Shown here: positions 6,519 to 38,378 of the stretch, piece by piece
Position numbering within the stretch: the first letter of the stretch is position 1
Layout of the letters: every line of letters starts with the position of its first letter
Made by a program: the position numbers and the translations under genes
Source: an uncultured Acidimicrobiaceae bacterium
GTDB taxonomy: Bacteria; Actinomycetota; Acidimicrobiia; Acidimicrobiales; Palsa-688
NCBI GenBank assembly: GCA_963781155.1
Contig: CAWAEC010000001.1
Location: 14,515 to 78,514 of the forward strand
Direction of reading: 5' to 3'
Length of the DNA: 64,000 nucleotides
Notes under the pieces: generated by a model
The model's database searches: none
What the model saw: the letters and a program-made list of their open reading frames with translations, nothing else
Told to the model about the DNA's origin: nothing

Positions 6519-6532
6519 CGAGCCGATCGTCC
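6519..6532 (-). promoter_or_regulatory. weak copy of the GGGACYTTCGGNCC box (CGGACGATCGGCTC in gene direction)
   Basis: 51-64 nt upstream of USP ATG 6468. 11/14 match to the DoxX copy. Confidence 0.25.
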
Positions 6533-6772
6533 GGGGTCTGTGCGGATCCAACTGCAACCAGCTTGTCCGGGTGACGGATCTGACGGCTAGGGCCGAGAGC
6601 CTCTAATGCGGGGCTTGGCCAGTCCGAAGATAAGAGGACCGCCGTAAATCGCCGCGGCGGCGACGCTGGGCAATGACGAAACCTCGGTGAAGCCAGCGAC
6701 TGACAGCAACCCGGCTGCGGTAACCACGCCCGGCCGCTGCCTAGGGATCCGGGCCTGGAAAACCTAGCGCAC

Positions 6773-7903
6773 TCACTCCGCTCCGGATCGGTCCGCAGCC
6801 GCGAACGCCCTCACAGAGTCACGCAACGCCTTCAGGCCGGGAAGATCGCCGCGTTCGATGAACTCCAGAGTGGCCCCTCCGCCGGTCGATATGTGATCGA
6901 TCCGGCCTGATAGCCCGAACTGAGAGACCGCGGCCACGGTGTCGCCACCTCCGATGACCGAAAAAGCAGCCGACGCAGCGACGGATTCGGCGACGGCACG
7001 AGTTCCGTCGGCAAAGCGGGGATCCTCGAACACGCCCATCGGACCGTTCCATAACACCGTGCCCGCGTCCTTGATGATCCCGGCGAAGGTAGCGACGGTG
7101 CCGGGGCCGATATCGCGACCGTTCCAGCCGGGAGGTACGTCCAAATCACTACTCGCCGACCGATCGGGAGTCCCGTCGCTTCCCAGCACCAGGTCGGAGG
7201 GCAGGACGATCCGGCCGGAATGCAAGAGGCCTCGGCAGCGGTCGATCTGGTCCGGCTCGACCATCGACTCCCCGGTGGAATGGCCCGCCGCAGCCAAGAA
7301 GGTGAAGCACATCCCGCCGCCGATCAGGATGGTGTCGACCCGATCGAGCAGAGCGGACACCACTCCCAGTTTGTCCGACACTTTGGCCCCGCCGAGAAGC
7401 GCAACGAACGGAGGGGCCGGCGAGTCCAGCAGTCCAGAAAGGACCGCGACCTCGCGCGCCACCAGCCGTCCGGCCGCAGAGGGCAGCCGGGTGGGGGGGC
7501 CGACCACTGAAGCGTGGGCTCGATGAACGCATCCAAAGGCGTCGTCGACGTAAAGGTCCTGACCGGCCACAAGACGGTCAACGAAGGCCGGGTCGTTCGC
7601 CTCCTCACCGGGATCGAATCTCAGGTTGTCAAGCAACGCCACACCCGGCGCCAGCTCAGCCAGACGGCGCCGGACCGGCTCCACATCGAACCGAGGGTCG
7701 AGCTTTCCCTTGGGCCGTCCGAGGTGGGTGCAGGTCGTAACAGAAGCCCCCCGCTCGGTTAGCCAGTTGAGCGTCGGCAAAGCAGCGCGGATCCGAAAGT
7801 CGTGAGAAATGTCGCCGTTCGCCACGGGCACGTTGAAGTCACACCGGACCAAGACCCGTCGGCCACACACATTGGGCAGGTCTTCCAACTCAGGAAGCTT
7901 CAC
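6773..7903 (-). CDS. pgk: phosphoglycerate kinase
   Basis: RVLVRCDFNVPV, CTHLGRPKG, GGGDT and STGGGA motifs. GTG 7903 lies 12 nt after the gap stop. The longer ORF to 8047 overlaps gap. Confidence 0.9.
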   Translation of the reverse strand: MKLPELEDLPNVCGRRVLVRCDFNVPVANGDISHDFRIRAALPTLNWLTERGASVTTCTHLGRPKGKLDPRFDVEPVRRRLAELAPGVALLDNLRFDPGEEANDPAFVDRLVAGQDLYVDDAFGCVHRAHASVVGPPTRLPSAAGRLVAREVAVLSGLLDSPAPPFVALLGGAKVSDKLGVVSALLDRVDTILIGGGMCFTFLAAAGHSTGESMVEPDQIDRCRGLLHSGRIVLPSDLVLGSDGTPDRSASSDLDVPPGWNGRDIGPGTVATFAGIIKDAGTVLWNGPMGVFEDPRFADGTRAVAESVAASAAFSVIGGGDTVAAVSQFGLSGRIDHISTGGGATLEFIERGDLPGLKALRDSVRAFAAADRSGAE

Positions 7904-7914
7904 CGCAATCGCCC

Positions 7915-8922
7915 CTAGCGGCCGGCACGACCGACGACGGCAGACAGCTCCCCAAGGCGGTTCGCGTATCCCCATTCGTTGTCGTACCAGCCATACACCT
8001 TGACCATCTGGCCGGCCGCCATCGTTAGCCCGGAGTCGAACACGCACGATGCCGGGTTCCCGATGATGTCGGTCGAGACCAGAGGTTCCTCGCTGTACTC
8101 GAGGATCCCGGTCAGGTTCGTCGCCGCCGCGTCCCGGAAGACTTCGTTTACGTCAGCCACCGTGACCGGTCGATGGAGCCAGGCCACCAAATCGGTGATC
8201 GACCCGTCAGGGACCGGTACCCGCAAGGCGCTCCCATCGAGCCGCCCGGTGACCGCCGGGAGTACCAGGCCGGTAGCCCGGGCCGCGCCCGTCGAGGTGG
8301 GAACGATGTTGAGCCCAGCGGCGCGCCCCCTGCGTGGATCCTTGTGCGGCGCATCGACGAGGACCTGATCTCCAGTGTAGGCATGCACGGTGGTGATGAA
8401 ACCCTGCTCGACGCCGAAGTTGTCCTCGAGCACCTTGATCATCGGCGCCAAGCAGTTCGTCGTACAAGACGCGTTCGACACCACCTGGTGCTGGAGGGGA
8501 TCAAAGGTTCGCTCATTGACGCCCAACACAATCGTGGCATCCGCGCCTTGGCACGGGGAGGAAACGACAACCCTGGAGGCCCCCGCAGTCAAGTGCTTGG
8601 CGGCTAACTCACGGGTCCGGAACCGACCCGTCGCCTCAACCGCCACGTCGACGCCGATCGACCGCCACGGCAACTCCTCAGGATCCCGTTCTTGGTAGAA
8701 GCGCAAGGGCATGCCGTCCACGATTATCTCGTTATCGCCAATCTTCAGGTCCCGTCCCAGTCGGCCATAGACAGAATCACGGGCCAGCAGGCCAGCCATG
8801 GCGGACAACGAGCCCAAGTCGTTGACCGCGACCACTTCGATACCCAGATCGCGTTCGATTGAGGCCCGATAGAGCGCCCGTCCCATACGCCCGAATCCAT
8901 TGATACCCACCCGAACCGACAC
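7915..8922 (-). CDS. gap: glyceraldehyde-3-phosphate dehydrogenase
   Basis: INGFGRMGR and active-site SNASCTTNCLAP. GTG start is preceded by GAGAGGAG. Confidence 0.95.
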   Translation of the reverse strand: MSVRVGINGFGRMGRALYRASIERDLGIEVVAVNDLGSLSAMAGLLARDSVYGRLGRDLKIGDNEIIVDGMPLRFYQERDPEELPWRSIGVDVAVEATGRFRTRELAAKHLTAGASRVVVSSPCQGADATIVLGVNERTFDPLQHQVVSNASCTTNCLAPMIKVLEDNFGVEQGFITTVHAYTGDQVLVDAPHKDPRRGRAAGLNIVPTSTGAARATGLVLPAVTGRLDGSALRVPVPDGSITDLVAWLHRPVTVADVNEVFRDAAATNLTGILEYSEEPLVSTDIIGNPASCVFDSGLTMAAGQMVKVYGWYDNEWGYANRLGELSAVVGRAGR

Positions 8923-8980
8923 TTGAGGCTCCTCTCTCGTAACTATGAGCCAGTCTCACCGGTTAGGGGCGCACCTTCTA

Positions 8981-8994
8981 GGGCCGAAAGTCCC
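8981..8994 (-). promoter_or_regulatory. GGGACTTTCGGCCC box upstream of gap-pgk
   Basis: Plus strand reads GGGCCGAAAGTCCC. 59-72 nt upstream of GTG 8922, oriented toward the gene. Confidence 0.5.
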
Positions 8995-9154: not shown

Positions 9155-9562
9155 TCAGGCGGACGGCCGTTCGATTCTCCTACCAGAGATCAGCTCCGGG
9201 TGGACGCGGATCAAGCGGTGTCTGTCTCCGCCCACGCCGGCCGCCGGCACCTCCCGGTCGCAGCGATCGACGTCATCCACAACCTCTTCCGCGACTCCGA
9301 CTACGAGTACGCTCCAGCCCTGCTGCGATTGTCCACTGGCGCGGTCGACTTCGAACGCCACGATGGTGTGGTCCAAGGCAGCTCTGAGTTTGAGCCCTTC
9401 TCCCGTGCGGAACATTACGTCGCCGTCCACCATCGAGTAGTTGACCGGAAAGATCGCGGGCAACGCCCCTAGGGAGATTCCGACTCGTCCGAGCGTCTCG
9501 CCAGCGAGTAGGCGACGGCACTGCTCTTCATCCAGCAATTCCAGACCCTCGTCGACGAGCAT
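9155..9562 (-). CDS. pyridoxamine 5'-phosphate oxidase (PPOX) family FMN/F420-binding-fold protein
   Basis: LDEEQCRRLLAGETLGRVG...IFPVNY...VAFEVD...GWSVLVVG. One of four paralogs in the window. Confidence 0.8.
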   Translation of the reverse strand: MLVDEGLELLDEEQCRRLLAGETLGRVGISLGALPAIFPVNYSMVDGDVMFRTGEGLKLRAALDHTIVAFEVDRASGQSQQGWSVLVVGVAEEVVDDVDRCDREVPAAGVGGDRHRLIRVHPELISGRRIERPSA

Positions 9563-9598
9563 GCTGTCACCCTAAATCGAACCCGTACGCCACGAGCA

Positions 9599-9612
9599 GA
9601 GCCGAACGACCC
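9599..9612 (-). promoter_or_regulatory. GGGTCGTTCGGCTC box upstream of PPOX gene
   Basis: 37-50 nt upstream of ATG 9562. 12/14 identical to the DoxX copy. Confidence 0.4.
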
Positions 9613-10398: not shown

Positions 10399-10412
10399 GG
10401 GACCTTCGGGCC
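10399..10412 (+). promoter_or_regulatory. GGGACCTTCGGGCC box upstream of hydrogenase operon
   Basis: 36-49 nt upstream of GTG 10448. A degenerate copy CCGGACCTCGGCC sits at 10381-10393. Confidence 0.5.
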
Positions 10413-16889: not shown

Positions 16890-17282
16890 CTAGGTTGGCC
16901 CTATTCGACGCCCGCTGATGCCTTCGAGCTCGATGCGGATCCAGCGGGCTTTCTGCCCTGGCGCCCAGGTGTCGACAGGGAAGGCCCGAACCTCTGCGCT
17001 CGTCTCGTCGAGGGCATCGGTGACGTCGTAGCCGACTCCGGTGACCAGGACACTCCATCCGGTTCGAGACGACTCGTCGATGGCGTCCACCTCGAACGCC
17101 ACCCGGCCCTGGGCCGCAGCGGACAGCTTGGTACCGGGATCAGTGCGTATGGCGATGCGCCAGTCATCGAAGACGTAGTTGACCGGCAGGATAACTGGCT
17201 GACGGTCGACGACCACTCCGATACGACCGAAATGATGACTGGCGAGAAGACCGAGACATTCATCCTCGCTGAGCACGTCCAT
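16890..17282 (-). CDS. PPOX family protein
   Basis: LSEDECLGLLASHHFGRIGVVV...ILPVNY...VAFEVD...GWSVLVTG. ATG 17282 lies 13 nt after the regulator stop. Confidence 0.8.
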   Translation of the reverse strand: MDVLSEDECLGLLASHHFGRIGVVVDRQPVILPVNYVFDDWRIAIRTDPGTKLSAAAQGRVAFEVDAIDESSRTGWSVLVTGVGYDVTDALDETSAEVRAFPVDTWAPGQKARWIRIELEGISGRRIGPT

Positions 17283-17295
17283 CTTCACCTGGACC

Positions 17296-17967
17296 TCATC
17301 CACGTGAGTCGCTGCGGTTCTCGGTCCGGCGGACCGCATAGACGGCCGCCTCGGTCCGTCGACTCATTCCCAGTTTGGCCAGCAGATTGGACACATAGTT
17401 CTTTACCGTTTTCTCCGACAGGTACATTAGCTCGGCGATCTGCCGGTTGGTCAGCCCCTCAGCGATGTGCTCGAGAATCCGCTCCTCTTGGGGGGTCAGA
17501 TGGTTCTCACGAGGCTCGTCGCGCCGAGACCGGATGCGCTCCATGACCCGGGCGGTCAACTCAGGATCGAGCAGAGAGTGGCCGTTGGCCACCTTTCTGA
17601 TATCGCTCACCAGGTCCGAGGCCCCGACCTCTTTGAGGACGTAGCCCGAAGCACCGGCCATTATGGCATCGAAGAGCGCTTCATCATCCGAAAAGGAGGT
17701 GAGCATCAGGCAGGCCACCTCTGGGTGCATGGAGCGGACTTCCCGGCAAACCTCGACTCCGTTGCCGTCGGGTAGACGCACGTCGAGCACGGCGACACGG
17801 GGGGCGGTGGCCGCGATACCGGCGAGCGCTTCCTCGGCAGTGCCGGCCTCGCCGACCACCTCCATGCCACCGTCTGTCTCGAGGAGACTGCGCACACCTT
17901 GGCGGACCACCTCGTGGTCGTCGAGGAGGAACACCCGGATCTGGTCCTGACGGGCATCAGCGGTCAT
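17296..17967 (-). CDS. devR: DevR/DosR-like NarL/LuxR-family response regulator
   Basis: VFLLDDHEVVRQG, VAVLDVRLPDGNG, LTSFSDDEALFDAIMAGASGYVLK and EKTVKNYVSNLLAKLGMSRRTEAAV closely parallel the M. tuberculosis DevR sequence as I recall it. AAGGAG lies 6 nt upstream of ATG 17967. Confidence 0.9.
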   Translation of the reverse strand: MTADARQDQIRVFLLDDHEVVRQGVRSLLETDGGMEVVGEAGTAEEALAGIAATAPRVAVLDVRLPDGNGVEVCREVRSMHPEVACLMLTSFSDDEALFDAIMAGASGYVLKEVGASDLVSDIRKVANGHSLLDPELTARVMERIRSRRDEPRENHLTPQEERILEHIAEGLTNRQIAELMYLSEKTVKNYVSNLLAKLGMSRRTEAAVYAVRRTENRSDSRG

Positions 17968-18033: not shown

Positions 18034-18384
18034 TCAAGACTCGGCCACCTCGCCCTGGATCGCGGACCCGTCCAGAAATGCCGCGATCGACGGCAGACGT
18101 GCCGTCAAACGCGCTTCTGCGTCACGACGGGTGTCTTCGGGCGGTCCATCGGCCAGGAAATCGTGCGGGATGGCCAAGCGCTGGCACAGACGGACCAGGG
18201 CGGCGTCGTACGCCAGCTCATCCCCGATTCGATCCGCGGCTCTACGACCGGCGGCCGTGGCGGCCCCGCCAGCCAGCCGGGCCCGGTACGCCATTGCTTC
18301 AGTGACGCACTCCCCTATGGTCTGGTCCGCTCCGGGGTCATTGCTCTCCAAGGCCACGCGGAGCAACTCCGAGTACACGCTCAC
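18034..18384 (-). CDS. hypothetical protein
   Basis: 116-aa ORF between the kinase remnant and the regulator on the same strand. Ala/Arg-rich helical-looking product with no recognised domain. Confidence 0.45.
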   Translation of the reverse strand: MSVYSELLRVALESNDPGADQTIGECVTEAMAYRARLAGGAATAAGRRAADRIGDELAYDAALVRLCQRLAIPHDFLADGPPEDTRRDAEARLTARLPSIAAFLDGSAIQGEVAES

Positions 18385-18458: not shown

Positions 18459-19038
18459 CTAGGGCCGAACGGCCTTATCGGCGTCGCTACGAGCTCCCTC
18501 CACGCGAGTGGGCGCCGTCCACTGCACAAACGTGCCCTTCGGCTTGCGGGCGGTGACATGGAACTGGCCGCCGAGTGCCTCCGCCCGATCAGCCATCTTG
18601 GCCAGTCCGTGGCCGGCGCTGGGGCCGTCCGCCGGCCCGATGCCGTCATCGGCGACGCTCAACGTGACGCTCGCCGCGGTAGCTTGCACCACCACGTCCG
18701 CTCCCGAGGCCTGGGCGCGACGGCCATCTTGGGTGACCATGGGCCGGTAGGCTGCCCGGTCCGAACCCGCCTCGGCGGGCCTCGAGCAGCACCGTCGCTT
18801 GGCGCTCATGTCGACCAACACGACGGTTGGCCGACGAGCATCGAACGCGCCGAGAGCTCGTCCGCATCCACAGACGCGCCGAGAAGCTGGTCGGCGGCGC
18901 ATGCCCGACGCCATAACCGAACAACATCTCGACTCCCGCGCTGGCCATGTCGACGACACCCTGGTTGTCAACCACAACGACGGCATCCGGCGAACAAGCG
19001 AACAGCGCTCTCAAGAAACTCCCCGAATCCTCACTCAA
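18459..19038 (-). pseudogene. decayed PAS-GAF-HisKA_3 histidine kinase remnant (paralog of 31260..32823)
   Basis: Three pieces lie in different frames: PAS N-terminus (SPDAVVVVDNQGVVDMASAGVEMLFGY), a GAF piece (VLLEARRGGFGPG) and an HATPase C-terminus (VVVQATAASVTLSVADDGIGP). The H-box region is absent. Confidence 0.7.
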
Positions 19039-19189: not shown

Positions 19190-19567
19190 TCACGGCTCAG
19201 TGGACGCCTGTAGCTTCATGGCGTCAAGAGCCTCATTCAGGGTAGGAGCGATCGGCACGACGATTCCCAGGCCCACCGCGTAGAGGACTTCGGACAGAAC
19301 CGGGTCCGATACGACGACCGCCAGCTGCCTGACCTGCTCGCTCGCTTCAGCGGCCGCGACCAACAACACGCCGACACCTGCGGAATCGGATTGGGTGATC
19401 GCAGACAAGTCAACTACTACCGCAGGCTCGTGGCCGTACCGCCTGAGATAGTGGCTGAGCTGGGATGCGGTCGCCCAGTCAAGCGCTCCCGTGACTCGGA
19501 CGACCAAGGCTCCGTTCTGGCGGTCATTTTCGATCTGACACTTATGCTCACCGAGCGTCGTTGTCAT
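19190..19567 (-). CDS. STAS-domain protein (anti-sigma-factor antagonist-like)
   Basis: VVDLSAITQSDSAGVGVLLVAAAEA pattern. GAAGGAGG lies upstream of ATG 19567. Confidence 0.8.
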   Translation of the reverse strand: MTTTLGEHKCQIENDRQNGALVVRVTGALDWATASQLSHYLRRYGHEPAVVVDLSAITQSDSAGVGVLLVAAAEASEQVRQLAVVVSDPVLSEVLYAVGLGIVVPIAPTLNEALDAMKLQASTEP

Positions 19568-19619: not shown

Positions 19620-19623
19620 AACA

Positions 19624-29694: not shown

Positions 29695-30753
29695 TCACGG
29701 GTTCAGTCCCTCTGTTCTCGACAGGACCACCTTGAGGGCGCCGGTCTCTGCTGGATCGGCAAAGACCTCGTACGCCTGGGTGAACTCGTCCAGAGGGAAG
29801 CGGTGCGTGACGAAGCGATCCGCGTCCAGCTGATTTCCCTGCAGCAGGCGCAGAAATGTCGGCGTGGAGAACGTATCCACTAGACCGGTGGTAATGGTCA
29901 CGTCTTTGATCCACAGGTCTTCCAGGTGGAGCGTCGCCGGCTCGCCGTGAACACCTATGTTGGCTACGTGCCCACCGGGTCGTACCAGTGCCGTGGCCAG
30001 CTCGAAGGCTGTCGACGTTCCGACGGCTTCTATCGTCACATCGGCACCGAGTCCGCCGGTTAAAGCGGCCACGGCAGCCAAAGGATCCTCACAGCCGTTA
30101 TTGACGGTCACGTCTGCTCCGAATTGCTTCGCCGCCTCGAGCCGGCTGCTGGCCAGATCAATGGCGACGACGTGCGCCGGGCTGTACAGCCGGCTGCCCA
30201 TGATTGCGGCCAGCCCGATCGGTCCGGCGCCGACGACCGCGACCACGTCGCCGGGCCGAACTCTTCCATTGAGCACACCGACCTCGTATCCGGTCGGAAG
30301 GATATCGGCGACCATGAGCAGCGCTTCGTCGCTGACGCCGTCTGGGGCTGGATATGTAGATGTGTCCGCGTAGGGTACCCGGACGTACTCCGCTTGGGTG
30401 CCGTCGATCAGGTGCCCTAGGATCCAGCCACCGCCACCCCGGCATTGCCCATAGTGCCCCTCCCGGCAGTATCGGCAGGTGGCGCACGAGGTGATGCAGG
30501 ACACGAGGACCTTATCGCCCGGCTTTAGCTGCTTGACCGCGGTGCCGACTGACTCGACCATCCCGACGGCTTCGTGGCCGAGGATCCGGCCGTCCGTCAC
30601 GGCAGGCACGTCACCTTTGAGGATGTGGAGATCCGTCCCGCAAATGGTGACGGCGTCGACCCGGACGATGGCGTCGGTATCGGCCTGCAGCCGGGGCTTC
30701 GGGACCTCTTCCCACGCCTTCTTTCCGGGACCGTGGTACACGAGCGCTTTCAT
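29695..30753 (-). CDS. zinc-dependent alcohol dehydrogenase (MDR family)
   Basis: ICGTDLHI, GHEAVG, VVGAGPIGL. Confidence 0.9.
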   Translation of the reverse strand: MKALVYHGPGKKAWEEVPKPRLQADTDAIVRVDAVTICGTDLHILKGDVPAVTDGRILGHEAVGMVESVGTAVKQLKPGDKVLVSCITSCATCRYCREGHYGQCRGGGGWILGHLIDGTQAEYVRVPYADTSTYPAPDGVSDEALLMVADILPTGYEVGVLNGRVRPGDVVAVVGAGPIGLAAIMGSRLYSPAHVVAIDLASSRLEAAKQFGADVTVNNGCEDPLAAVAALTGGLGADVTIEAVGTSTAFELATALVRPGGHVANIGVHGEPATLHLEDLWIKDVTITTGLVDTFSTPTFLRLLQGNQLDADRFVTHRFPLDEFTQAYEVFADPAETGALKVVLSRTEGLNP

Positions 30754-31259
30754 TTTGTCGTCCTCTCTACCGCGGCGATCATCACGTCGACCTTACGAGG
30801 AGGCCGCCTCGGGCGGCAGAGGCGAACGGCCCCACTCGCTGAGTCTCCTCGGCGCAGCGATACGCCGGGTTCGAAGGGTCGGGGCTCGCCGACAAAGTGA
30901 CCTTGACGCTGCCATGTGGACGTTCGAGGCGTCAGTATTTGGTCGAGGCGCCAGACCAGGAGGACCCCTGACCACGTTCCGACACCGACTTGCGGCACCG
31001 TCACGAGGACTCCAAACTCCTGAGGGTCGGGGCCACGATGTCGGCATCGACTCCGGCTGCGCCTCGAGTTGGCCAGCCGGGACCCCGAGGGAGAACGGCG
31101 CATGGGATCCAACCCCCACGCCAATGGCGGCTTGTTGCTGCGGGAGCTCCCCTCCCGGACTTTCGTCGCTACGCCTTAGAAGTGTCCTAGCCGGGGTCGA
31201 CCGGCGGCGAGGCCACGCGGGTACTTGGCTGGCGGGGGCTCGAGTTGGGGCGAACTGCC

Positions 31260-32823
31260 CTAAGGGGTGCGGCCACGGTCTCTACCCTTGTGAGTCGGGA
31301 CCGCCCACTGCAGCAAAGTGCCGGTCGGCTTGCGGGCAGTGATGCGTAGCTCGCCGCCGAGTTGCGCAGCCCGATCAGCCATGTTGACCACCCCATGCCC
31401 GGCACTGGGGCTGTCCGGTGGCCCGATCCCATCGTCGGCGACGCTGAGTGTCACGCTGGCTGCAGTGGCCTGTACCACCACATCGGCTCGCGATGCGTGG
31501 GCGTGACGAACCACGTTGGTCAATGCTTCGCGAGTTACCGCCAGCAGGTGGGTCATGGTCTGGTCCGAAATGGCCGCCTCCACCGGTCCTCTGAAGGTCA
31601 CCCGGGGTGTGAAGTCGAGCTGGCTACCGACCTCGGCCACCACCTCGCGGAACTCGTTGCCGTACGCCGAGCTCGGCCGTCTGGGGCCGATTGAGGTCGA
31701 AGATGGTCTCGCGGATATCCCGTATCACCTCGTCAATTGCTTCGACGGCCTCTACGATCCGGTCGCTGACACGAGGATCCGCCAGGCGCTGAGCACTCTG
31801 CAAGCGCATCCCCAAGGCAAAGAGTCGCTGAATGACAGTGTCGTGCAGGTCGCGAGCGATTCGTTCATGCTCCGACACCATGTGCAGGTCCTCCACGGCG
31901 TCCCGCGCCGCGCCGAGGGCGATGCCCACCGCGGCGGCCGAGGCGAACACCTCTACGGCCGCCACCTCCTCGTGGGTGAAACACTCGGCGCCAGCGTCAC
32001 GAGCGACAACCAAGGCTCCGATCGGTTTGTTCTGGGTCAGCATAGGCAGGTAGACGCCCGGCCCGAAACCGTCTCGTCGCGCCTCGCTCAGCACTGCCGG
32101 TTCAGCGCTCATGTCCAGGAGAACTACGGGCTGGCCTGCTCGCATTGCCCCGGCCGACAGGCTCGTTTGGGCGTCCAAAGAGGCACCGACGAGCAGGTCG
32201 GCGCTGCGGCCCGACGCCGCCGTCACCACCAGTCGATCGGGGTCGGTCTCGTCGGGGACCACCACCCAGGCCGCCGAGGCGCGCACCAGCCGCTGCGCCC
32301 GCTCCGAGACTGCCGTCAGGATGTCGGTGACGTCCTCACCCGCCAGCACTTGCCGGGTCACCTCGTTGACGTCCCGCATCAAGTGTTCACTGCGCCGCCT
32401 GCTGGTGGCATCGCGAACGAACGCGGCCGTACGAACGCGCCCGTGGAGGCGGAGCGGGGTCAGGCTGACGTCGACGGGAAAGACGCTGCCGTCTCGGCGA
32501 CGCCCGTGCAGTTCCAACCCCGCGCCCATGGCTCGGGGCACCGGGTCCTTGCTGTAGCTGGCCCGATAGTCCCGATGGACATGCCTGACCCGATCCGGGA
32601 CCAGCATCTCTATCGGCTGCCCCACCACCTGCTCGGTGCGATACCCAAACAGCGTCTCCGTCGCGGCGCTGGCCATCTCGATGCGACCTTGCTCATCGAC
32701 AACCACCACAGCGTCCGGCGAAGAAGCCATCAGCGCATCCGAGAGGTTGCTCAAGTCCTCGCTCACTGGCGTAGATAGTAGGGCGTCAGCGAACCGTCCC
32801 AGAGCGCTCCGCTGATTACCCAC
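31260..32823 (-). pseudogene. PAS-GAF-HisKA_3-HATPase sensor histidine kinase, split by one frameshift
   Basis: ORF 31624..32823 carries PAS, GAF and the H-box HERIARDLHDTVIQRLFA. ORF 31260..31643 carries ALTNVVRHAHAS...DDGIGP. The frames overlap at 31624-31643, and removing one C near 31655 restores ...LGVRNEFREVVAEVG. Confidence 0.75.
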
Positions 32824-32845: not shown

Positions 32846-32859
32846 GGGACGTATGGCCC
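32846..32859 (+). promoter_or_regulatory. GGGACGTATGGCCC box upstream of small ORF 32913
   Basis: 54-67 nt upstream of ATG 32913, and 23 nt from the divergent kinase GTG 32823. 11/14. Confidence 0.35.
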
Positions 32860-32912: not shown

Positions 32913-33092
32913 ATGGCTCAGTGTCACGACAGCTATGAAGGCGGAACCTGGCCGGCGCACCACATCAGGGAGGTTGATGGCGCCCAGTGCCGCGATACGT
33001 ATACGAAGTCGGAACCGATGAGTAGCGATCTCCAGGACAAGGTCGGCGCGTTGGCGGAAGACCGGGCGTCGCAACTGGCTGGAGTCGAATAG
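32913..33092 (+). CDS. small Cys/His-containing hypothetical protein (59 aa), below the ORF-track cutoff
   Basis: AAGGAG lies 6 nt upstream of the ATG. Product MAQCHDSYEGGTWPAHHIREVDGAQCRDTYTKSEPMSSDLQDKVGALAEDRASQLAGVE. Confidence 0.4.
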   Translation: MAQCHDSYEGGTWPAHHIREVDGAQCRDTYTKSEPMSSDLQDKVGALAEDRASQLAGVE

Positions 33093-33322: not shown

Positions 33323-34196
33323 GTGGCCATGAGCGACACCCACGTTCCCACTGTCTTGGTCGGTGTCGATGGGACACCCGCCGGAGACGCTGCCCTCGCC
33401 TGGTCCTTGCAGGAGGCCCGCATTCGCCAGGCGGCGGTCGAAGCCTTTGTGGTGTGGTCGATCCAGATCGCCGCGATTGCGAATGTAGGGTTGGATGCCC
33501 TCACCGAGAGTGACGCCCGACATCTGCTCGACGAGTCTCTTCTTCGCGTCGGCGGCACCGGTGGGATCCGGGTACGTCTCCAAACGCGGGCAGGCCCACC
33601 TTTCTCCGAGCTGGCGCTCGAGGCAGCTGCGACCCACGCTGTTCTCATCGTTGTGGGGAACCATCCACACGGAGTACTCCACGACGCGCTAGTAGGGGTG
33701 CCGACGACGGCGTTGACCCACCACGCTCGCCAGCCCCTCGTCTTGGTTTCCCCGGGCCCGTCACGACCCGGGAATGGGCATCTCGTCGTTGGGGTCGATG
33801 GCAGCGACGCAAGCGTCGCTGCGCTGCGATGGGCGGTTGCGGAAGCGGCCATCCGCCAGCAACCGGTTCGCGCTGTCAGGGTTTACGAGGCTCGGTCGCA
33901 CGTCTCGGCCCAACCTGTCCAACAGCGCCGGCTGCTCGACGAACTTCGCGATACGCTCGCCGCCAATGCCAACGCTCGTGTGGAGGTCGAGGCCACCGTC
34001 GTCGAGGGCTCAACGGCACAGGTGCTGGTCGGCATTAGCGCAGAAGCCGAGCAGCTCGTGCTTGGCGCGTCCGCTCGACGGAATCTCGCCGAAATTGATC
34101 GCCGGTAGCGAGATCCGCGCTTGCGCCCGAGCAACCCGCGTGCCGCTGGTATTAGTGCCGCCCGCACTCAACGAAAGTCGATCGCCACCCCCATAA
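33323..34196 (+). pseudogene. tandem-domain universal stress protein with 3' frameshift
   Basis: ORF 33323..34108 ends ...LVLGASARRNLAEIDRR. The expected USP tail LIAGSEIRACARATRVPLVLVPP continues in the next frame to 34196. The extra A is in run 34092-34094. Confidence 0.7.
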
Positions 34197-34692: not shown

Positions 34693-34851
34693 CCCACGGC
34701 GGCGGTCGGGGACGCGTTCCCGTGGAAGCAGAACGGGGTTTGGAAGTCCACCACCGCCACTGGGAGGGGGCGGCTGTGACGTTCGCCTCTATTGATCTGC
34801 GACGCGGCGAGCGCAGACTGGACGAACTAAGGATAACTGGGAGGTTCAGAC

Positions 34852-35397
34852 GTGAAAGTTGTCCTCATATATGAGTCCATGTTCGGGGCTACCCGCAGTG
34901 TCGCCGAGGCCATCGCCGAGGGCATGCGCACCTCGGCCGACGTCGTGGTACGCCACACGTCGGACACCGGCCCCTTCACTCTTGACTGGGCTGATTTGGT
35001 CGTCGTCGGTGCCCCAACTCAGGCTTGGAGCATGCCGCGACCCAGAACCCGCAAGGGTACGCCTGGCTACGTCCGAAAACGGTGCAGCGGACTTGTCCTT
35101 GAGCCCGGGGCCCAGATCGAGTCTGGCGTGCGAGAGTTTCTCGCCTCGCTCCCGTCGTTAAGGATATCAGCCGCGGCGTTCGACACTCGCATCAAGGCCC
35201 CCCGGCTGTTCACCGGGCGGGCGTCGAAGGCCATCGGACGAGCCTTAGCTCGTCGCGGCGCCCGATTGGTCGTGCCCCCGGAGAGCTTCTTGGTCGACAG
35301 GAAAAGTCATCTCATCCCGACCGAGTCCGAGCGGGTCCGGGCGTGGGGTGCCCACGTGGTCATGGAGAGCTCCTCGAGGGAAATGGCTGCCACCTGA
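34852..35397 (+). CDS. flavodoxin-like fold protein
   Basis: MKVVLIYESMFGATRSVAEAIAEG...LVVVGAPT. GGGAGG upstream of GTG 34852. Confidence 0.8.
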   Translation: MKVVLIYESMFGATRSVAEAIAEGMRTSADVVVRHTSDTGPFTLDWADLVVVGAPTQAWSMPRPRTRKGTPGYVRKRCSGLVLEPGAQIESGVREFLASLPSLRISAAAFDTRIKAPRLFTGRASKAIGRALARRGARLVVPPESFLVDRKSHLIPTESERVRAWGAHVVMESSSREMAAT

Positions 35398-35412: not shown

Positions 35413-36405
35413 CTATTTCGGTGGTGCTGATGGAGCCATATTGGTCAGAGGGTGATCCCGGTAGTAGTCGCGCCAGATGATCTTGTAGATCGGTATCCAT
35501 CGTGGTATCGATCGCACGCCGGGGATGATGGGGACCAGGATGAGGGCGAGGGACAGGATCATCATGATCGCCCACACCAGGGCGTCGGCGTTGCCGGAGG
35601 TTTTGAACGGGGATATCTGGTACCAGAAGGTGTACAGCCACAGCCAGGCTTGGCCCGGGTAGCTGCCGGTCTCGTTCATGATGCCCCACTGGTCACCGCC
35701 GAGATGTTGGACGTTGGCCAGGTTGCCCAGGTAGGTGCCGTCGGCCAGGAACAGGAGGGGTTTGGTGTAGTTGTCCTGGTAGAAGCCGCTGCCCTGGTTG
35801 ACCAGTTGGCTGTTGAGGGCGCCGCTTTGGGCCAGGCGGAGCAGGGCCGCGGTCATGGCCGGTACCGGGCCGTAGTTGCCGGGGGCGACCTTGGCCGGGT
35901 CGTTGCCGGGGGCTTTGGAGATGGCGGTGTCGTAGGCGCTGGCCCAGGCCTGCTGCTGGCTGGTGCTGGCGTTGCGGTAGGCAGCCAGGGCGGCAGTAAG
36001 GGCAGGGTTGCCGGTGACTGTGGACAGGGGGGCCAGCACGAAATCGACCGCGGGGTCGACGGGTAGGCGCACGCCGGCCCAGTTTTGCAGGTGCAGGAAG
36101 AAGATCGACTGGCCGGTGCCGGCCTGGTTGTAGGGGGGTCCGTAGGAGGCGCTGGTGCTGGTCCCGTCGAGCTCGGTGACAGCGGTGGTGACGAAGTCGG
36201 CCGGGTCCTGGCGGCCCCACTGTTGCAGAGTAATGGCCTTGTCGTCGGGGGAGGACAGCACCAGGGCGGCGATCACCGCGACCAGGCCGACCACGATCAG
36301 GGCGATCACGAATTCCTTGACCAGGTCGTAAGGGCGTTTGGGTCCGGTCCACTGTCCCGCACTGGTCCGTCGCCGGTGACGGCGAGAGGGTGTCGGTTCG
36401 CTCAC
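35413..36405 (-). CDS. membrane protein resembling cytochrome b subunit IV / C-terminal domain with a large extracytoplasmic insertion
   Basis: GTG 36405 overlaps the cytochrome b stop (GTGA). N-terminal TM, then about 200 aa of soluble Cys-free sequence, then AWLWLYTFWYQISPF where PEWYFLFAYQ normally sits, then further TM helices. Confidence 0.7.
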   Translation of the reverse strand: MSEPTPSRRHRRRTSAGQWTGPKRPYDLVKEFVIALIVVGLVAVIAALVLSSPDDKAITLQQWGRQDPADFVTTAVTELDGTSTSASYGPPYNQAGTGQSIFFLHLQNWAGVRLPVDPAVDFVLAPLSTVTGNPALTAALAAYRNASTSQQQAWASAYDTAISKAPGNDPAKVAPGNYGPVPAMTAALLRLAQSGALNSQLVNQGSGFYQDNYTKPLLFLADGTYLGNLANVQHLGGDQWGIMNETGSYPGQAWLWLYTFWYQISPFKTSGNADALVWAIMMILSLALILVPIIPGVRSIPRWIPIYKIIWRDYYRDHPLTNMAPSAPPK

Positions 36406-37064
36406 CGGTCGCGCTTGCCGTCGCTGGTGGGCCCGCCGTCCGCGTCGATGCCGACCGGCGGTACCACACCCCGGATGCGCACCAACACCACGTGCAACAC
36501 CACGATAATCCCCACGCCCAGTGGGAGCAGCATGATGTGCCACAACAGCATCTGGCCCAGGTTGAGGACATTCCAGAACGCCCCCACCCCGGTGCTGTTG
36601 ATCCCGTCTTTGGCCTGGGTGGCGATCCATTGCGAGTCGAAGTTGGTCTGGACCACATAGCCGGTGAAGGCGGTGGCGACCGACACCAAGAAGGCCACCA
36701 CCCCCGTCACCCAGGTCAGCCCGCGCCGGCCTCGCCAGGCCGCCATCCAGAACTTGCCCCACAAGTGAATGACCATGAAGAAGAAGAACAGCTCCACGCT
36801 CCACAGGTGCAAGCTGTTGAAGAAATGCCCGACCGCGGTGGTGTGCCACCAGTTGATCCCGCCCAGAGCCAGCACCGCACCCGAGACGATGATGAAGACC
36901 AGCGCGGCCAGGGTGAGCACCCCGAACACATAGATCCACGACGACACATAGGCCGGCTGGTGGTCGGGAAGAGCCCGGTCCGGGGGCAAAGCCGACAGCA
37001 GCCGGTCCCGGACACGACCCGTCCAGCTGCCGCCAGGTCGCTCCGACACCGGAGTGGCGGTCAC
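36402..37064 (-). CDS. cytochrome b (b6-type N-terminal four-helix di-heme domain)
   Basis: His pairs H-x13-H (LHLWSVELFFFFMVIH) and H-x14-H (HIMLLPLGVGIIVVLH). GTG 37064 overlaps the upstream stop (GTGA). Confidence 0.85.
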   Translation of the reverse strand: MTATPVSERPGGSWTGRVRDRLLSALPPDRALPDHQPAYVSSWIYVFGVLTLAALVFIIVSGAVLALGGINWWHTTAVGHFFNSLHLWSVELFFFFMVIHLWGKFWMAAWRGRRGLTWVTGVVAFLVSVATAFTGYVVQTNFDSQWIATQAKDGINSTGVGAFWNVLNLGQMLLWHIMLLPLGVGIIVVLHVVLVRIRGVVPPVGIDADGGPTSDGKRDR

Positions 37065-37204
37065 GGCCGGTTCCTTCCCCCCGGGAACGGAGCGAACAGG
37101 GCCACCACGAACACCACGATCATCAACACGATGACAATAAAATTCGCCAGCGACAGCTGGACGAACCCCCAGTGGATGAAATAGCCGGGGCTGTTCAAGT
37201 TCAC
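37061..37204 (-). CDS. small membrane protein, first gene of cytochrome b operon
   Basis: ...GYFIHWGFVQLSLANFIVIVLMIVVFVVALFAPFP. Start is uncertain: GTG 37204, or the ORF continues up to 37363. Confidence 0.5.
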   Translation of the reverse strand: MNLNSPGYFIHWGFVQLSLANFIVIVLMIVVFVVALFAPFPGGRNRP

Positions 37205-37666
37205 GGCCAGCAACCCACCCGAGGACGCGGCACTGACCACCAGCCACCTCCCGGCAACTCTCGCAAATCTACCAACGAATGTAATGACCGACGTGCACGG
37301 GCTGGGGGATCCCCCACCGGACGGGCACGCCGTCCAGGACACGAGCGGCGAACGATCGGGCATCGATCACCGCGGTCCCTGAGCGACAGGCGGTGGCGCG
37401 AGCCTGAAGGCCGCACTTTGCCACCGCCGAGCGGCTCCGTTCAGACCTACGTCGCGGGATTAGGGGGTTCCGACCCGATATCCGATGCCGTTGGATCAGC
37501 AAAGGTCGAAGTCGGGCTCGCCGATACGGCCGCACCCGGGCTGCCGTGGCGACGAGGTCGTCAGCCAACTAAAGAAACAGTTTTGCGGGAGCGGCCTCTG
37601 GACGCGCCAGTGCGGCCCGCGGGGAGCGGACCGCACCAGTGTGACGTGACCGAGGCAGCGGACCGG

Positions 37667-38284
37667 CTAGGCGGCCGTCTTGACCGCAGCAGCGGTCCCG
37701 GTCCCGTCGCCCTCCCCGGCGAGGGAGTCGTGGCGGGGCGGGCCGTGGCGGCGCTGGCGGTAGCCGGCGATGAGCCCGTCGATGCCGATCCAGCTCGAGG
37801 TCCTCCACATGGTCAGGATGACGATGGCGAACAGGGCGTAGAAGGCGCACACGCTGGCCGTGCCCGACATCACGTAGGTGAACAGCAGGGCCAGGCTGCC
37901 CAGCGCCGCCACTCGGGTGAACAGGCCGGCCACCAAAGCGAAGCCGATCACCAGCTCGGACACCGCGATCAGCACGCCGATCCAGCCCGAGTTGGGGACC
38001 ACGAAGCTGTGCAGGAAGCTACCCCACCAGGTGTAGGCCGGCTTGGCGTGGCCGGCGAAACCGGCCACCCCGGCCCCGTTATGGTGCAAAAAGGCGGCGT
38101 TCTCCGCCCCCCACAGCTTGGCCCAGCCAGCCTGGATCCACATCACCCCCAGCCACACCCGCATAGCCAGCCATCCCACCGCCAAGACCTTCGATTCCTT
38201 CACCCATTCCCACACCCGCGGGTTCGTTCGCTCAGACGGATCACCCAAAACGGCAACCGCATCACTCGCCACAGTATTCGTCAT
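37667..38284 (-). CDS. DoxX family membrane protein
   Basis: Four TM helices. MRVWLGVMWIQAGWAKLWG pattern. GAAGGAAG RBS. Confidence 0.9.
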   Translation of the reverse strand: MTNTVASDAVAVLGDPSERTNPRVWEWVKESKVLAVGWLAMRVWLGVMWIQAGWAKLWGAENAAFLHHNGAGVAGFAGHAKPAYTWWGSFLHSFVVPNSGWIGVLIAVSELVIGFALVAGLFTRVAALGSLALLFTYVMSGTASVCAFYALFAIVILTMWRTSSWIGIDGLIAGYRQRRHGPPRHDSLAGEGDGTGTAAAVKTAA

Positions 38285-38364
38285 CAGAATGCTTCCTTCT
38301 TCTCCGTGGCCCGGCTCCCGCGGGCCTCACCGTCATCCTCGCCGCCGGCCCGGGTCCGCCAGTA

Positions 38365-38378
38365 GAGCCGAAGGTCCC
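38365..38378 (-). promoter_or_regulatory. GGGACCTTCGGCTC box upstream of DoxX
   Basis: Plus strand reads GAGCCGAAGGTCCC. 81-94 nt upstream of ATG 38284. Confidence 0.5.

Follow-up and report, generated by a model that had tools for sequence, protein, structure and literature searches.

A 14-base box recurs upstream of genes in a 64,000-nucleotide stretch of DNA, here called the window, from an uncultured soil actinobacterium (an Acidimicrobiia MAG), and the question raised by this locus is what the box is and which protein reads it. The repeated box is real and chance is excluded as its origin. Very probably, it is the operator of a response regulator of the DosR/DevR/OsdR type and the most likely binder is the protein encoded at 17296..17967, as proposed in an earlier note made from the sequence alone. 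The box would then be an activator operator of a hypoxia and redox regulon island, one more instance, clear but unremarkable, of the well-studied DevR/OsdR system.

Recurrence of the box

The eight main copies described in the earlier note were found at the coordinates given there, each oriented toward its downstream gene and separated from the start codon by 59 (gap), 57 (STAS), 36 (hydrogenase), 81 (DoxX), 36 (CBS/BON), 37 (PPOX), 61 (tandem Usp) and 54 nt (small ORF), and its gene assignments were borne out by Pfam (gap, pgk, Pyridox_ox_2, hydrogenase subunits, STAS, CBS/BON, Usp, DoxX). Its hand estimate that the core GGGACYTTCGG should occur 0.1-0.2 times was correct, the computed value being 0.15, and the window holds four exact copies, a number reached in none of 100 shuffles. 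The loose 14-mer, with up to two mismatches, was weakly enriched in the window (14 vs 7.8) and there was no enrichment of the generic palindrome GGGMCN4GKCCC when at most one mismatch was allowed (32 vs 36), and the signal therefore resides in the whole asymmetric box and not in GC-rich half-sites alone.

A scoring matrix trained solely on 41 sites of other genomes was then run on the window, and boxes were called at 12 bits or more with an nAnnnT at offset 24-29 or 25-30. This yielded 15 boxes against 0.125-0.37 expected (Table 1), the matrix for relatives having first been seeded with the window's own sites, such that the window and relatives scans are not fully independent. All 15 lie upstream of genes, 36-106 nt from the start codon, and they span 4.3 to 38.4 kb of the window. 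Six of them, starting at 4399, 4905, 18462, 19770, 30819 and 34776, are additional to those listed earlier. Among the weaker copies proposed previously, that at 24954-24967 was retained, with a -10 at the right offset and a PPOX gene downstream, together with 24933-24946 as a second box 21 bp upstream, while those at 6519-6532, 19606-19619 and 31156-31169 scored low and lacked a -10 at the right offset. Between 7.3 and 28 kb, every box region is identical in L001, a second assembly of this locus that is independent and noisier.

Table 1. Boxes, predicted -10 hexamers and downstream genes in the window, with the proposed regulator and sensor kinase; (T) is the base directly after the box.
Feature	Position	Strand	-10 hexamer	Remarks	Gene(s) downstream
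AGGACTTTGGACTC(T)	4399..4412	-	TACGTT 4369-4374	14.3 bits, lower-confidence site	ABC-transporter ATPase 3397..4338 (Pfam ABC_tran), ATG 61 nt after box
GTGACCTTCGTCCC(T)	4905..4918	+	GATGAT 4942-4947	18.5 bits	2TM-domain protein, probable start ATG 5024, end 5404 (Pfam 2TM)
GGGACTTTCGGCCC(T)	8981..8994	-	GAGACT 8952-8957	exact core, 24.3 bits	gap 7915..8922, pgk 6773..8047, Usp gene ending 6046 (Pfam)
GGGTCGTTCGGCTC(T)	9599..9612	-	TAGGGT 9569-9574		PPOX-like 9155..9562 (Pfam Pyridox_ox_2), ATG 9562, 37 nt after box
GGGACCTTCGGGCC(T)	10399..10412	+	TACGGT 10436-10441	exact core	group-3b [NiFe] hydrogenase operon 10448 to ~16567 (Pfam, NCBIfam)
AGGCCGTTCGGCCC(T)	18462..18475	-	CACGAT 18432-18437	14.4 bits, near OsdR consensus	ORF 18034..18384, then devR, then PPOX 16890..17339
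GGGACTTTCGGACC(T)	19624..19637	-	CAGACT 19595-19600	exact core	STAS gene 19190..19567 (Pfam STAS)
ATGACGATCGGCTC(T)	19770..19783	+	GAAACT 19807-19812	degenerate, 12.0 bits	GNAT/ADP-forming acyl-CoA synthetase (acs) 19819..22521 (Pfam), GTG 19819, 36 nt after box
GGTACCTTCGGCCC(T)	23457..23470	-	GACAGT 23428-23433		CBS-pair/BON protein 22630..23421 (Pfam), ATG 23421, 36 nt after box
GGGACTTGTGACCC(T)	24526..24539	-	GACGAT 24497-24502		tandem-Usp protein 23551..24465 (Pfam Usp)
GGGACCTCCGGCAG	24933-24946	+		upstream tandem box, 21 bp from box 24954-24967	third PPOX gene 25040..25510 (Pfam Pyridox_ox_2)
GGGCCGTTCGACTC(T)	24954-24967	+	CAGGCT 24991-24996	15.4 bits	third PPOX gene, as above
GGGCCGTTCGCCTC(T)	30819..30832	-	TAAGGT 30790-30795	13.0 bits	zinc alcohol dehydrogenase 29695..30753 (Pfam ADH_N/ADH_zinc_N)
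GGGACGTATGGCCC(T)	32846..32859	+	GAGAAT 32884-32889	near-palindromic	59-codon ORF 32913..33092
GTGACGTTCGCCTC(T)	34776..34789	+	CAGACT 34814-34819	15.7 bits	flavodoxin-like gene 34852..35397 (Pfam Flavodoxin_5)
GGGACCTTCGGCTC(T)	38365..38378	-	GAGGAT 38335-38340	exact core, 22.9 bits	DoxX 37667..38284, then cytochrome-b-like gene 36402..37247 (Pfam DoxX, Cytochrome_B)
DevR/DosR-like NarL-family response regulator	17296..17967	-		223 aa, proposed box binder	
PAS-GAF-HisKA_3-HATPase_c sensor kinase (Pfam)	31260..32823	-		divergent from box 32846	

Conservation in relatives

The earlier note had suggested examining orthologous promoters, and in the hyhB and gap promoters of Acidimicrobiales MAGs the box is indeed retained, together with its orientation and spacing. 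The box of the hydrogenase operon is the best conserved of all. At hyhB promoters of these MAGs, with HyhB identities of 55-70%, the order of box, 22-23 nt, TAnnnT, 6-7 nt and ATG or GTG is maintained, and relatives L002-L018, L042 and L044 share the box, the -10 and the spacing, while the sequence of the spacer itself is unrelated between relatives. Over 80 hydrogenase loci, 60 box matches were found against 8.35 expected and, when a -10 was also required, 41 against 0.25. At the gap promoters of L009 and L012 the box lies 75-77 nt from the start codon, and in L010 a box occurs about 600 nt upstream of the devR orthologue.

Promoter geometry

Each of the 15 boxes is followed directly by a T and, 23-24 nt on, by a -10-like hexamer. 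For hyhB, CBS/BON, PPOX (9155..9562) and acs the start codon follows the box by 36-37 nt and the hexamer by 6 nt, the hyhB start (GTG 10448, 36 nt after the box) being confirmed by orthologue alignment, and these four transcripts are probably leaderless. If so, the distances place the box centre at about -42.5 or -43.5 relative to the predicted transcription starts, a placement that depends on reading the four genes as leaderless and on the degenerate nAnnnT criterion. In M. tuberculosis the tgs1 P box is centred at -42.5 and the hspX box at -43.5 (PMC3177182, PMC13486717).

The fixed spacing between box and hexamer is also what would be expected if the box were itself a promoter element, for example the -35 of an alternative sigma factor (ECF or SigF/SigB-type) under the control of the STAS/RsbW-like partner-switching genes beside devR. 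The island does encode a protein with a STAS domain and a small one with HATPase_c, and CAGACTGG is common to several -10 regions. However, sigma-70-family factors use spacers of 15-19 nt, and here the gap to the -10 is 30-31 nt from the end of GGGAC and 23-24 nt from the end of GGCCC, which is too long. Moreover, the hexamers are generic nAnnnT and not of the GGGTA or CGTC types, the invariant positions show the dyad symmetry expected of a dimeric helix-turn-helix protein, and none of the ORFs scanned was seen to encode a sigma factor, all of which renders a sigma element very improbable.

Even less credible, and already largely refuted, is the idea that the box acts in the transcribed 5' leader, as a UUCG-type hairpin or attenuator, or that it is a compositional accident of GC-rich DNA. 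GGGACCUUCGGGCC could fold into a short, imperfectly paired hairpin whose loop is UUCG, TTTTCTT follows the box at the hydrogenase promoter, and the absence of enrichment of the generic GC-rich palindrome also speaks for this reading. Against it, at the four genes with start codons 36-37 nt downstream, the -10 hexamer lies between box and start codon, and the box therefore lies upstream of the transcript; the T-run is missing at the other sites, no Rfam matches occur anywhere in the window, and chance is excluded by the enrichment counts and by positional conservation in relatives.

The regulator and its candidate kinase

Among solved structures, the best relative of the 17296..17967 protein is M. 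tuberculosis DevR (3C3W, E=1e-66), followed by VraR (1e-43), and it shares 53% identity with DevR. Cryo-EM and crystal structures of DevR show that K179, K182 and N183, together with T180, Y184, Q153 and N167, read GGGACT (PMC13486717). All seven residues are conserved in the protein considered here, where K168 to R is the sole change among the DNA-reading positions compared, and the phospho-acceptor is retained as D62 (D54 in M. tuberculosis). On the DNA side, G3, C5, G10 and C12 are near-invariant among the 41 sites (41/41, 40/41, 40/41 and 40/41). They correspond to G5 and C7 of both DevR half-sites, where mutation lowers binding by about 90% (PMC3177182), and the box therefore keeps the bases essential for DevR. 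Regulator residues, box bases, position and regulon all agree with the proposal that the box is an operator of this protein, which would bind it and mediate induction by hypoxia.

One feature is left unexplained by an operator of the DevR/OsdR type, namely the strict polarity of an asymmetric box: the -10 lies on the GGCCCT side at 41 of 60 sites and on the GGGAC side at 4 of 60, against a 5% background. The polarity would be accounted for by a heterodimer with one partner preferring GGGAC and the other GGGCC, and another NarL/LuxR-family regulator, such as a DevR paralogue encoded outside the window, might also bind the boxes. M. smegmatis carries two DosR paralogues of differing activity and, with 64 kb of the genome in view, a paralogue with the same recognition helix is conceivable. 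Nevertheless, we consider a different binder unlikely. The ORFs scanned in that part of the window which bears the boxes included no second DevR-like regulator, and the 17296..17967 gene lies in mid-island behind its own box and encodes a recognition helix identical to that of M. tuberculosis DevR. Furthermore, homodimeric OsdR binds both M. tuberculosis-type and Streptomyces-type sites in vitro (PMC5069765), from which it follows that one protein can read both half-site variants, and the A/C difference falls at a position that is not critical for DevR binding (PMC3177182).

The PAS-GAF kinase is a candidate cognate kinase, with a PAS domain resembling those of FixL and DosP (NCBIfam), and in the present assembly it is split by an apparent frameshift into ORFs 31624..32823 and 31260..31643. 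This split counts against the preferred explanation, as do two further features of the kinase: its gene and that of the regulator are not adjacent but 14 kb apart, in contrast to the co-operonic arrangement in M. tuberculosis, and it is PAS-GAF where DevS and DosT are GAF-GAF.

A model for activation

The DevR-like protein would be phosphorylated on D62 and bind the 14-bp core as a dimer, with one recognition helix reading GGGAC in the distal half and the other reading GGGCC in the proximal half, there on the bottom strand. With its centre some 42.5-43.5 bp upstream of the transcription start, the dimer would occupy the position where a -35 element would otherwise begin. Because the promoters carry no recognisable -35 and a plain nAnnnT as -10, the bound dimer probably recruits RNA polymerase via sigma region 4 and the alpha subunits. 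This would constitute class II activation, as seen in the cryo-EM complex of M. tuberculosis DosR and RNA polymerase (PMC13486717).

This promoter design appears to recur in about 15 transcription units across a 34-kb island. Their predicted products include fermentative and redox proteins (group 3b NAD(P)-linked hydrogenase, gap-pgk, ADP-forming acyl-CoA synthetase, Zn-ADH, flavodoxin, DoxX/cytochrome b) and stress or persistence proteins (four Usp, CBS/BON, several PPOX-like flavoproteins, STAS), in addition to the operon of the regulator itself. Low oxygen or reductive stress is the likely input and would be sensed by the PAS-GAF kinase.

Comparison with known systems

The controlled genes overlap the regulons of M. 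tuberculosis, M. smegmatis and S. coelicolor. The M. tuberculosis DevR regulon includes CBS-pair (Rv2626c-like) and PPOX-like (Rv0080-like) genes, and Usp genes are under control there and, by prediction, here, with autoregulation a probable shared feature. Further similarities extend to the recognition helix (EKTVKNYVS), the phospho-acceptor aspartate, the 14-bp core of G-G-G-x-C half-sites, in which the same essential positions are invariant, the W-W centre (TT in the present box) and a proximal box at about -42.5/-43.5 at poor -35 promoters. The systems differ in that the proximal half-site is GGGCC-GA here and GGGAC-TW in M. tuberculosis, in the presence here of gap-pgk, group 3b hydrogenase, ADP-forming acyl-CoA synthetase and ADH in the regulon, and in the host, which is not a mycobacterium. 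Moreover, most promoters here have one strong box and lack a recognisable secondary one. The 24933/24954 pair is the single clear 21-bp tandem in the window and, over 56 sites, the second-box signal is a weak score rise at -21/-22 and -30; two or more tandem boxes at each promoter, as is the hallmark in M. tuberculosis, are thus not evident in the window promoters or the 56-site score profile, which counts against the preferred explanation.

The right half of the box, which the earlier note described as differing from that of the M. tuberculosis box, is no departure from the family. OsdR (SCO0204) of Streptomyces coelicolor has the 16-nt consensus AGGGCCGATCGGCCCT with half-site TCGGCCCT, to which the promoter-proximal half of the present box is identical, and the exact 14-mers GGGACCTTCGGCCC (at SCO5979, SCO0167c and narG2) and GGGCCGAAAGTCCC appear in the published table of OsdR sites (PMC5069765). 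The OsdR regulon holds Usp, Zn-ADH and PPOX genes (PMC5069765), and in the window Usp, Zn-dehydrogenase and pyridoxamine-phosphate-oxidase-like genes are likewise clustered in an island around the regulator. The OsdR consensus was derived from regions upstream of osdR and is a symmetric palindrome. Here, in contrast, the distal half is consistently of the M. tuberculosis type, GGGAC(Y)T, and the orientation of the box toward the promoter is fixed. Neither the nitrate reductase nor the developmental targets of OsdR were seen in the window.

The dos regulon of M. smegmatis controls the Hyh (group 3b) hydrogenase, which is thought to dispose of reductant in hypoxia, and a similar link between a DosR-type regulator and an NAD(P)-coupled group 3b [NiFe] hydrogenase is suggested here, from sequence alone. 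Beyond M. smegmatis, the box-hyhB arrangement is conserved in many non-mycobacterial actinobacterial lineages, at a putative leaderless promoter.

Individual transcription units

Box 18462..18475 is a candidate autoregulatory site of the devR operon, and the STAS transcript may continue into the RsbW-like ORF 18459..18986 (weak HATPase_c) and devR. Box 32846..32859 is 22 nt away from the GTG annotated for the divergent kinase, and the transcript from this box possibly runs on to Usp 33323..34108. After box 4905..4918, an ATG at the predicted transcription start (4954) opens an ORF of merely 28 codons.

A predicted operator in a hypoxia/redox island

Our analysis supports the prediction that the recurrent, asymmetric 14-bp element, here termed the box, is a DevR/OsdR-type operator at about 15 activator-dependent promoters within a 34-kb hypoxia/redox island of this Acidimicrobiia MAG. 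Its core 11-mer, GGGACYTTCGG, occurs in the whole window in four exact copies, as had been counted earlier, against 0.15 expected, and at least four copies were found in 0 of 100 dinucleotide shuffles. The eight principal copies described in the earlier note, upstream of gap-pgk, the STAS gene, the hydrogenase gene hyhB, DoxX, CBS/BON, PPOX, the tandem Usp gene and small ORF 32913, proved correct in their coordinates, their orientation towards the downstream gene and their start-codon distances.

The special feature is the complete asymmetric box, and looser patterns carry little signal. The 14-mer with at most two mismatches gave 14 matches in the window against 7.8 expected, and the generic palindrome GGGMCN4GKCCC with at most one mismatch was not enriched there (32 against 36 expected), which indicates that the half-sites alone carry no signal. 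GC-rich repeats in coding sequence made up most of the exact k-mers over-represented across the whole window (k=10-12), and this analysis was not informative.

A matrix built solely from 41 foreign sites, located in the hydrogenase loci of other genomes, was then run on the window and yielded 21 matches of at least 9 bits against 5.6 expected. Fifteen matches carry a -10 element at the right offset, against 0.37 expected, and all 15 score at least 12 bits, for which the expectation is 0.125. They comprise the eight principal sites, six additional boxes (see table) and the copy at 24954-24967, one of the weaker copies of the earlier note; those at 6519, 19606 and 31156 scored low and showed no -10 at the right offset. 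The region from 39 to 64 kb of the window yielded no box site with this matrix and a -10. A box-like sequence at 4375-4388 was rejected as a second box, being without a -10. The divergent intergenic region between STAS and acs, the gene for a GNAT/ADP-forming acyl-CoA synthetase, contains at least four box-like sequences and is reminiscent of the four-box narK2-Rv1738 region of Mycobacterium tuberculosis.

Table. Positions of boxes, promoter motifs and other features in the window
Feature	Position	Strand	Remarks
GGGACYTTCGG	8984-8994	-	
GGGACYTTCGG	10399-10409	+	
GGGACYTTCGG	19627-19637	-	
GGGACYTTCGG	38368-38378	-	
Additional box	4399-4412	-	Serves ABC ATPase
Additional box	4905-4918	+	Serves 2TM protein
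Additional box	18462-18475	-	Upstream of ORF 18034..18384, devR, PPOX
Additional box	19770-19783	+	Acyl-CoA synthetase; GTG at offset 36, probably leaderless; in STAS-acs region
Additional box	30819-30832	-	Serves Zn-ADH
Additional box	34776-34789	+	Serves flavodoxin-like gene
STAS-acs intergenic region	19568-19818		
Box-like, STAS-acs region	19624-19637	-	
Box-like, STAS-acs region	19654-19668	+	
Box-like, STAS-acs region	19680-19694	+	
(C/G)AG(A/G)CTGG	8950-8957		
(C/G)AG(A/G)CTGG	19593-19600		
(C/G)AG(A/G)CTGG	24989-24996		
(C/G)AG(A/G)CTGG	34812-34819		
(C/G)AG(A/G)CTGG	about 21060		In L002, a hydrogenase locus from another genome
devR-like regulator	17296..17967	-	
acs	19819..22521		
HisKA_3 kinase	31260..32823	-	Overlapping ORFs 31624..32823 and 31260..31643
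15-codon ORF	18384-18428	-	ATG at 18428
STAS and RsbW-like ORF	18459-19567	-	
cNMP-binding ORF	11242-12075	+	
DUF6390 gene	15623-16567	+	
GltD-like ORF	9615-10331	-	
Mosaic region	34201-34700		
Mosaic fragment	34319-34577		86% identity to acs 21329-21590
Mosaic fragment	34565-34696		82% identity to acs 3' end, 22394-22525
Mosaic fragment	34201-34319		85% identity to DoxX 5' end, 38189-38318, reverse orientation

Conservation in related hydrogenase loci

Eighty hydrogenase loci from other genomes, totalling 1.45 Mb, were scanned with block-shuffled sequences as controls. They gave 60 matches of at least 15 bits, against 8.35 in the controls, and 41 of them have a -10 at the right offset, against 0.25 expected. 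In orthologous hyhB promoters of Acidimicrobiales MAGs (55-70% HyhB identity) the arrangement is repeated with unchanged orientation, the box being followed by 22-23 unrelated nt, TAnnnT, 6-7 nt and an ATG or GTG, as in GGGACTTCTGGCCCT...TATTGT (locus L007), GTGACTTCTGGCCCT...TAGCCT (L006), GGGACCTTCGGCCCT...TAGGGT (L016) and GGGCCGTCTGGCCCT...TACGGT (L044). The earlier note had proposed conservation in orthologous promoters as a check, and the box is indeed kept both at hyhB in these MAGs and at the gap genes beside the hydrogenase in L009 and L012, where 75-77 nt separate it from the start codon. The 15-mer GGGACTTTCGGCCCT is found unchanged, with its -10 at the proper spacing, in the Streptomyces loci L039 and L079 as well. 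That box and hexamer are kept across a diverged spacer is strong evidence for a promoter plus operator.

Half-sites, regulator and kinase

Among the 41 sites from relatives, position 3 of the 14-mer is G in 41/41 and C5, G10 and C12 are each present in 40/41, and the top window sites show the same pattern of invariant columns. A Dev box has G3, G4, G5 and C7 (18-bp numbering) conserved on both strands; in the known systems it is bound by the phosphorylated regulator, and its target genes respond to hypoxia, NO or CO. In that numbering, the four near-invariant columns correspond to the G5 and C7 of both half-sites, the most important bases for DevR binding, and the central positions of the Dev box are "usually A or T" (PMC3177182). 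The centre of the window box is TT, and its 14-bp core carries two inverted half-sites with the essential G5 and C7 kept. The Dev-box consensus of M. tuberculosis is TTSGGGACTWWAGTCCCSAA; the window box departs from this consensus at two less critical positions of the 14-mer, 9 (C for A) and 11 (G for T), and at no others.

The left half of the box is the M. tuberculosis half. The right half had been described as different, on a comparison with M. tuberculosis only; this stands for that species but not for the wider family, since TCGGCCCT, including its trailing T, is the half-site of OsdR, the Streptomyces DevR orthologue. Urem et al. derived AGGGCCGATCGGCCCT for OsdR, which also binds the M. 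tuberculosis Dev boxes, and their site table contains CGGGACCTTCGGCCCT at SCO5979, AGGGACCTTCGGCCCC at SCO0167c, narG2, and AGGGCCGAAAGTCCCG at SCO2347 (PMC5069765). Both GGGACCTTCGGCCC and GGGCCGAAAGTCCC are sites listed for OsdR (PMC5069765), and the full window 14-mers already belong to the published family.

The devR-like gene encodes a protein of 223 aa with Pfam Response_reg (REC) and GerE domains, whose best PDB match is full-length M. tuberculosis DevR (3C3W; E=1e-66, 228 bits against 150 bits for VraR). Its global identity to the M. tuberculosis DevR sequence used is 53%, and the residues of that sequence at the named positions agree with the published ones (PMC13486717). D54, Q153, N167, K179, T180, K182, N183 and Y184 are conserved and K168 is replaced by R, such that the domains, the phospho-acceptor Asp and the alpha-9 reading residues of a DevR/DosR response regulator are all found; K179, K182 and N183 read the GGGACT and TGTCCC motifs (PMC13486717). 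NCBIfam holds no DevR-specific model, and none of its equivalog cut-offs was reached, the best being MadR with 200 bits against a cut-off of 300. Our view extends over 64 kb of sequence, which leaves room for a second DevR-like paralogue, or a heterodimer, to bind the boxes; we consider this unlikely. The proposal that the box is a DevR-like operator is supported, and sharpened, by the footprint, the invariant columns and the conserved reading residues.

DevRS/DosT kinases are haem sensors with a GAF-GAF-HisKA_3-HATPase_c architecture and are usually encoded adjacent to devR. Here, in contrast to M. tuberculosis, no kinase gene of any architecture adjoins that of the regulator, and the sole HisKA_3 kinase found in the window, which is divergent from the box at 32846, combines a PAS domain and a single GAF with HisKA_3 and HATPase_c. 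Its PAS domain is similar to the haem-PAS domains found in FixL and DosP. The PAS-GAF-HisKA_3 part and the HATPase_c domain are read in two overlapping ORFs, reflecting either a frameshift or a residual assembly error. The shared box marks this kinase as a candidate partner of the regulator.

Promoter geometry

Read towards the genes, a T directly follows the 14-mer in 8/8 of the principal sites, and each has a -10-like nAnnnT at offset 24-29 or 25-30 (GAGACT, CAGACT, TACGGT, GAGGAT, GACAGT, TAGGGT, GACGAT and GAGAAT); the interval from box end to nAnnnT is 23-24 nt in 15/15 window sites. The start codons of hyhB, CBS/BON and PPOX-9155 come 36, 36 and 37 nt past the box, respectively, and 6 nt past the hexamer, and with acs there are four apparently leaderless genes with a start codon 36-37 nt past the box, that of hyhB being confirmed by orthologue alignment. 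Leaderless transcripts are common in actinobacteria, and the spacing in hyhB, CBS/BON and PPOX-9155 matches theirs. A reading of the box as an RNA element was rejected on the basis of this leaderless geometry and because an Rfam scan of the whole window gave no match.

If the start codon is taken as +1, the box extends from about -49 to -36, with its centre at -42.5 or -43.5, and at these inferred starts it would occupy the proximal activator position, overlapping a weak -35. No -35-like hexamer is conserved in the aligned sites, the T after the box excepted. The box itself is unlikely to constitute a sigma-factor -35 element, since 23-24 or 30-31 nt separate it from the -10, more than the spacers of the sigma-70 family allow. 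At M. tuberculosis tgs1 the primary box is centred at -42.5 and the secondary box at -63.5 (PMC3177182), and the hspX box in the DosR-RNAP cryo-EM complex is centred at about -43.5 beside a suboptimal -35, with the dimer touching sigma-A region 4, alpha-CTD and alpha-NTD (PMC13486717). Since the inferred geometry is the same as at these promoters, class II activation is favoured as the mode by which a bound regulator would act at the box promoters.

Several -10 regions share an extended (C/G)AG(A/G)CTGG, beyond nAnnnT, that may represent a preferred discriminator or extended -10 of the box promoters. The transcription start predicted for the 18462 box roughly coincides with the ATG of a 15-codon ORF, whose TGA shares bases with the start codon GTG of ORF 18034..18384 (GTGA). 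Either this arrangement is a coincidence or the short ORF could be a leaderless upstream ORF, its translation coupled to that of the devR operon.

Tandem boxes and polarity

M. tuberculosis promoters always carry at least two tandem boxes, about 21 bp apart and in helical phase, whereas in the window a clear 21-bp tandem occurs only at 24933/24954; hyhB has a degenerate second copy 17-18 bp upstream. For 56 aligned sites from the window and the loci, the mean matrix score rises weakly, by about 5 bits (about 3 sd), at -21/-22 and at -30, a hint that highly degenerate secondary sites may recur at helical-turn intervals. The secondary sites of M. tuberculosis are themselves poorly conserved and, therefore, sequence alone does not decide on tandem boxes.

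The box is polar here, in contrast to that of M. tuberculosis. Of the 60 matches in other genomes, 41 have the -10 on the side of GGCCCT and 4 on that of GGGAC, against a background of 5%. The hyhB promoters retain GGCCCT, with variation in the distal half (GTGAC, ATGAC, AGGAC). The preference for T in the scans is partly a selection bias, T being part of the matrix, whereas its occurrence in all eight principal sites is unbiased. We found no discussion of box polarity in the DosR/OsdR literature examined. As a speculation, polarity could result from a joint constraint imposed by the downstream regulator subunit and sigma region 4.

A more far-reaching reading, doubtful when taken as a whole, is that the asymmetry is functional and general and that DosR-type operators of Acidimicrobiia and other actinobacteria are polar hybrids, with an M. 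tuberculosis-type GGGAC(Y)T always distal and an OsdR-type TCGGCCC plus invariant T (at about -35) always proximal. The proximal half-site would be the one constrained by the downstream subunit and sigma region 4, and in this lineage a FixL-like PAS-GAF kinase would replace the GAF-GAF kinases DevS/DosT as input. Box orientation would then be a determinant of activation, one undescribed in the literature examined.

Implications

The DosR/DevR dormancy-regulator paradigm would, with operator and class II geometry intact, extend to uncultured soil Acidimicrobiia. The predicted regulon is compact, with about 15 units in 34 kb, and would tie hypoxia sensing to fermentative H2 metabolism, lower glycolysis, acyl-CoA/ATP conservation and persistence proteins. 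A Hyh-type hydrogenase, such as the island includes, is already known to be dos-regulated in M. smegmatis. The box with its fixed-spacing -10 is a very specific predictor (41 against 0.25 expected) that could be used in interpreting soil metatranscriptomes and annotating MAGs. Understanding of the DosR system is unchanged, the value lying in annotation and ecology, and the sole mechanistic question raised is why asymmetric boxes are strictly oriented.

Locus, assembly and gene content

The exact regulator protein is present on the ENA metagenome contig ERZ25039470:contig_94252 (113,854 bp), which aligns with window positions 7312-27964 at 99.38% identity (89 mismatches, 38 indels), all box regions in the overlap being identical. 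The indels explain why the gene calls of the contig are fragmented (e.g. GH65 and acs). The same ORFs are intact in the window, which is a better-polished version of the locus, and genes were taken from window ORFs and Pfam in place of the contig calls. The nearest genomes in the GTDB representative set are Acidimicrobiales/Acidimicrobiaceae MAGs with 62-73% identity in the hydrogenase large subunit, which places the organism among the uncultured Acidimicrobiia, without a close sequenced relative in the set.

Gene identities across the island are borne out by Pfam and NCBIfam. They include gap, pgk and a Usp gene, four Pyridox_ox_2 (PPOX-like) genes, and a group 3b-type hydrogenase operon (HyhB-like Fer4_22, cNMP-binding ORF, HyhG-like, small and large subunits, HycI and DUF6390) with a large subunit most similar to sulfhydrogenase alpha, together with STAS, the GNAT/ADP-forming acyl-CoA synthetase, CBS/BON, tandem Usp, Zn-ADH, a flavodoxin-like gene, and DoxX followed by a cytochrome b-like gene. 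With four Usp genes, CBS/BON, four Pyridox_ox_2, Zn-ADH, flavodoxin and the Hyh hydrogenase, Usp and redox/fermentative functions cluster around the regulator, as in DosR-type regulons; content was compared with that of the S. coelicolor and M. smegmatis regulons via the S. coelicolor table and the M. smegmatis Hyh, respectively.

The cNMP-binding ORF lies between hyhB and hyhG, overlapping the hyhB 3' end in a different frame, and has homologues at the same position in 75/80 hydrogenase loci; it appears to belong regularly to the group 3b operons of actinobacteria, although little discussed. Its candidacy as a CRP-type regulator was rejected, because an HTH domain is lacking and the ORF is a conserved part of the operon in 75 loci. 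The DUF6390 gene follows the hydrogenase maturation genes, a position kept in 19 related loci. The GltD-like ORF comprises Fer4_20 and the beginning of an FAD/NAD-binding domain, stops just short of the PPOX box and, at 238 aa, looks truncated, GltD-type proteins typically having about 450 aa.

Immediately upstream of devR, and on its strand, a STAS gene (anti-sigma antagonist-like) accompanies a small RsbW-like ORF that matches HATPase_c weakly. The pair suggests that a partner-switching module lies within or beside the devR operon; among the scanned ORFs we saw no sigma factor gene. Finally, a mosaic of degenerate duplicated fragments, which look like pseudogene debris, lies just upstream of the box at 34776.
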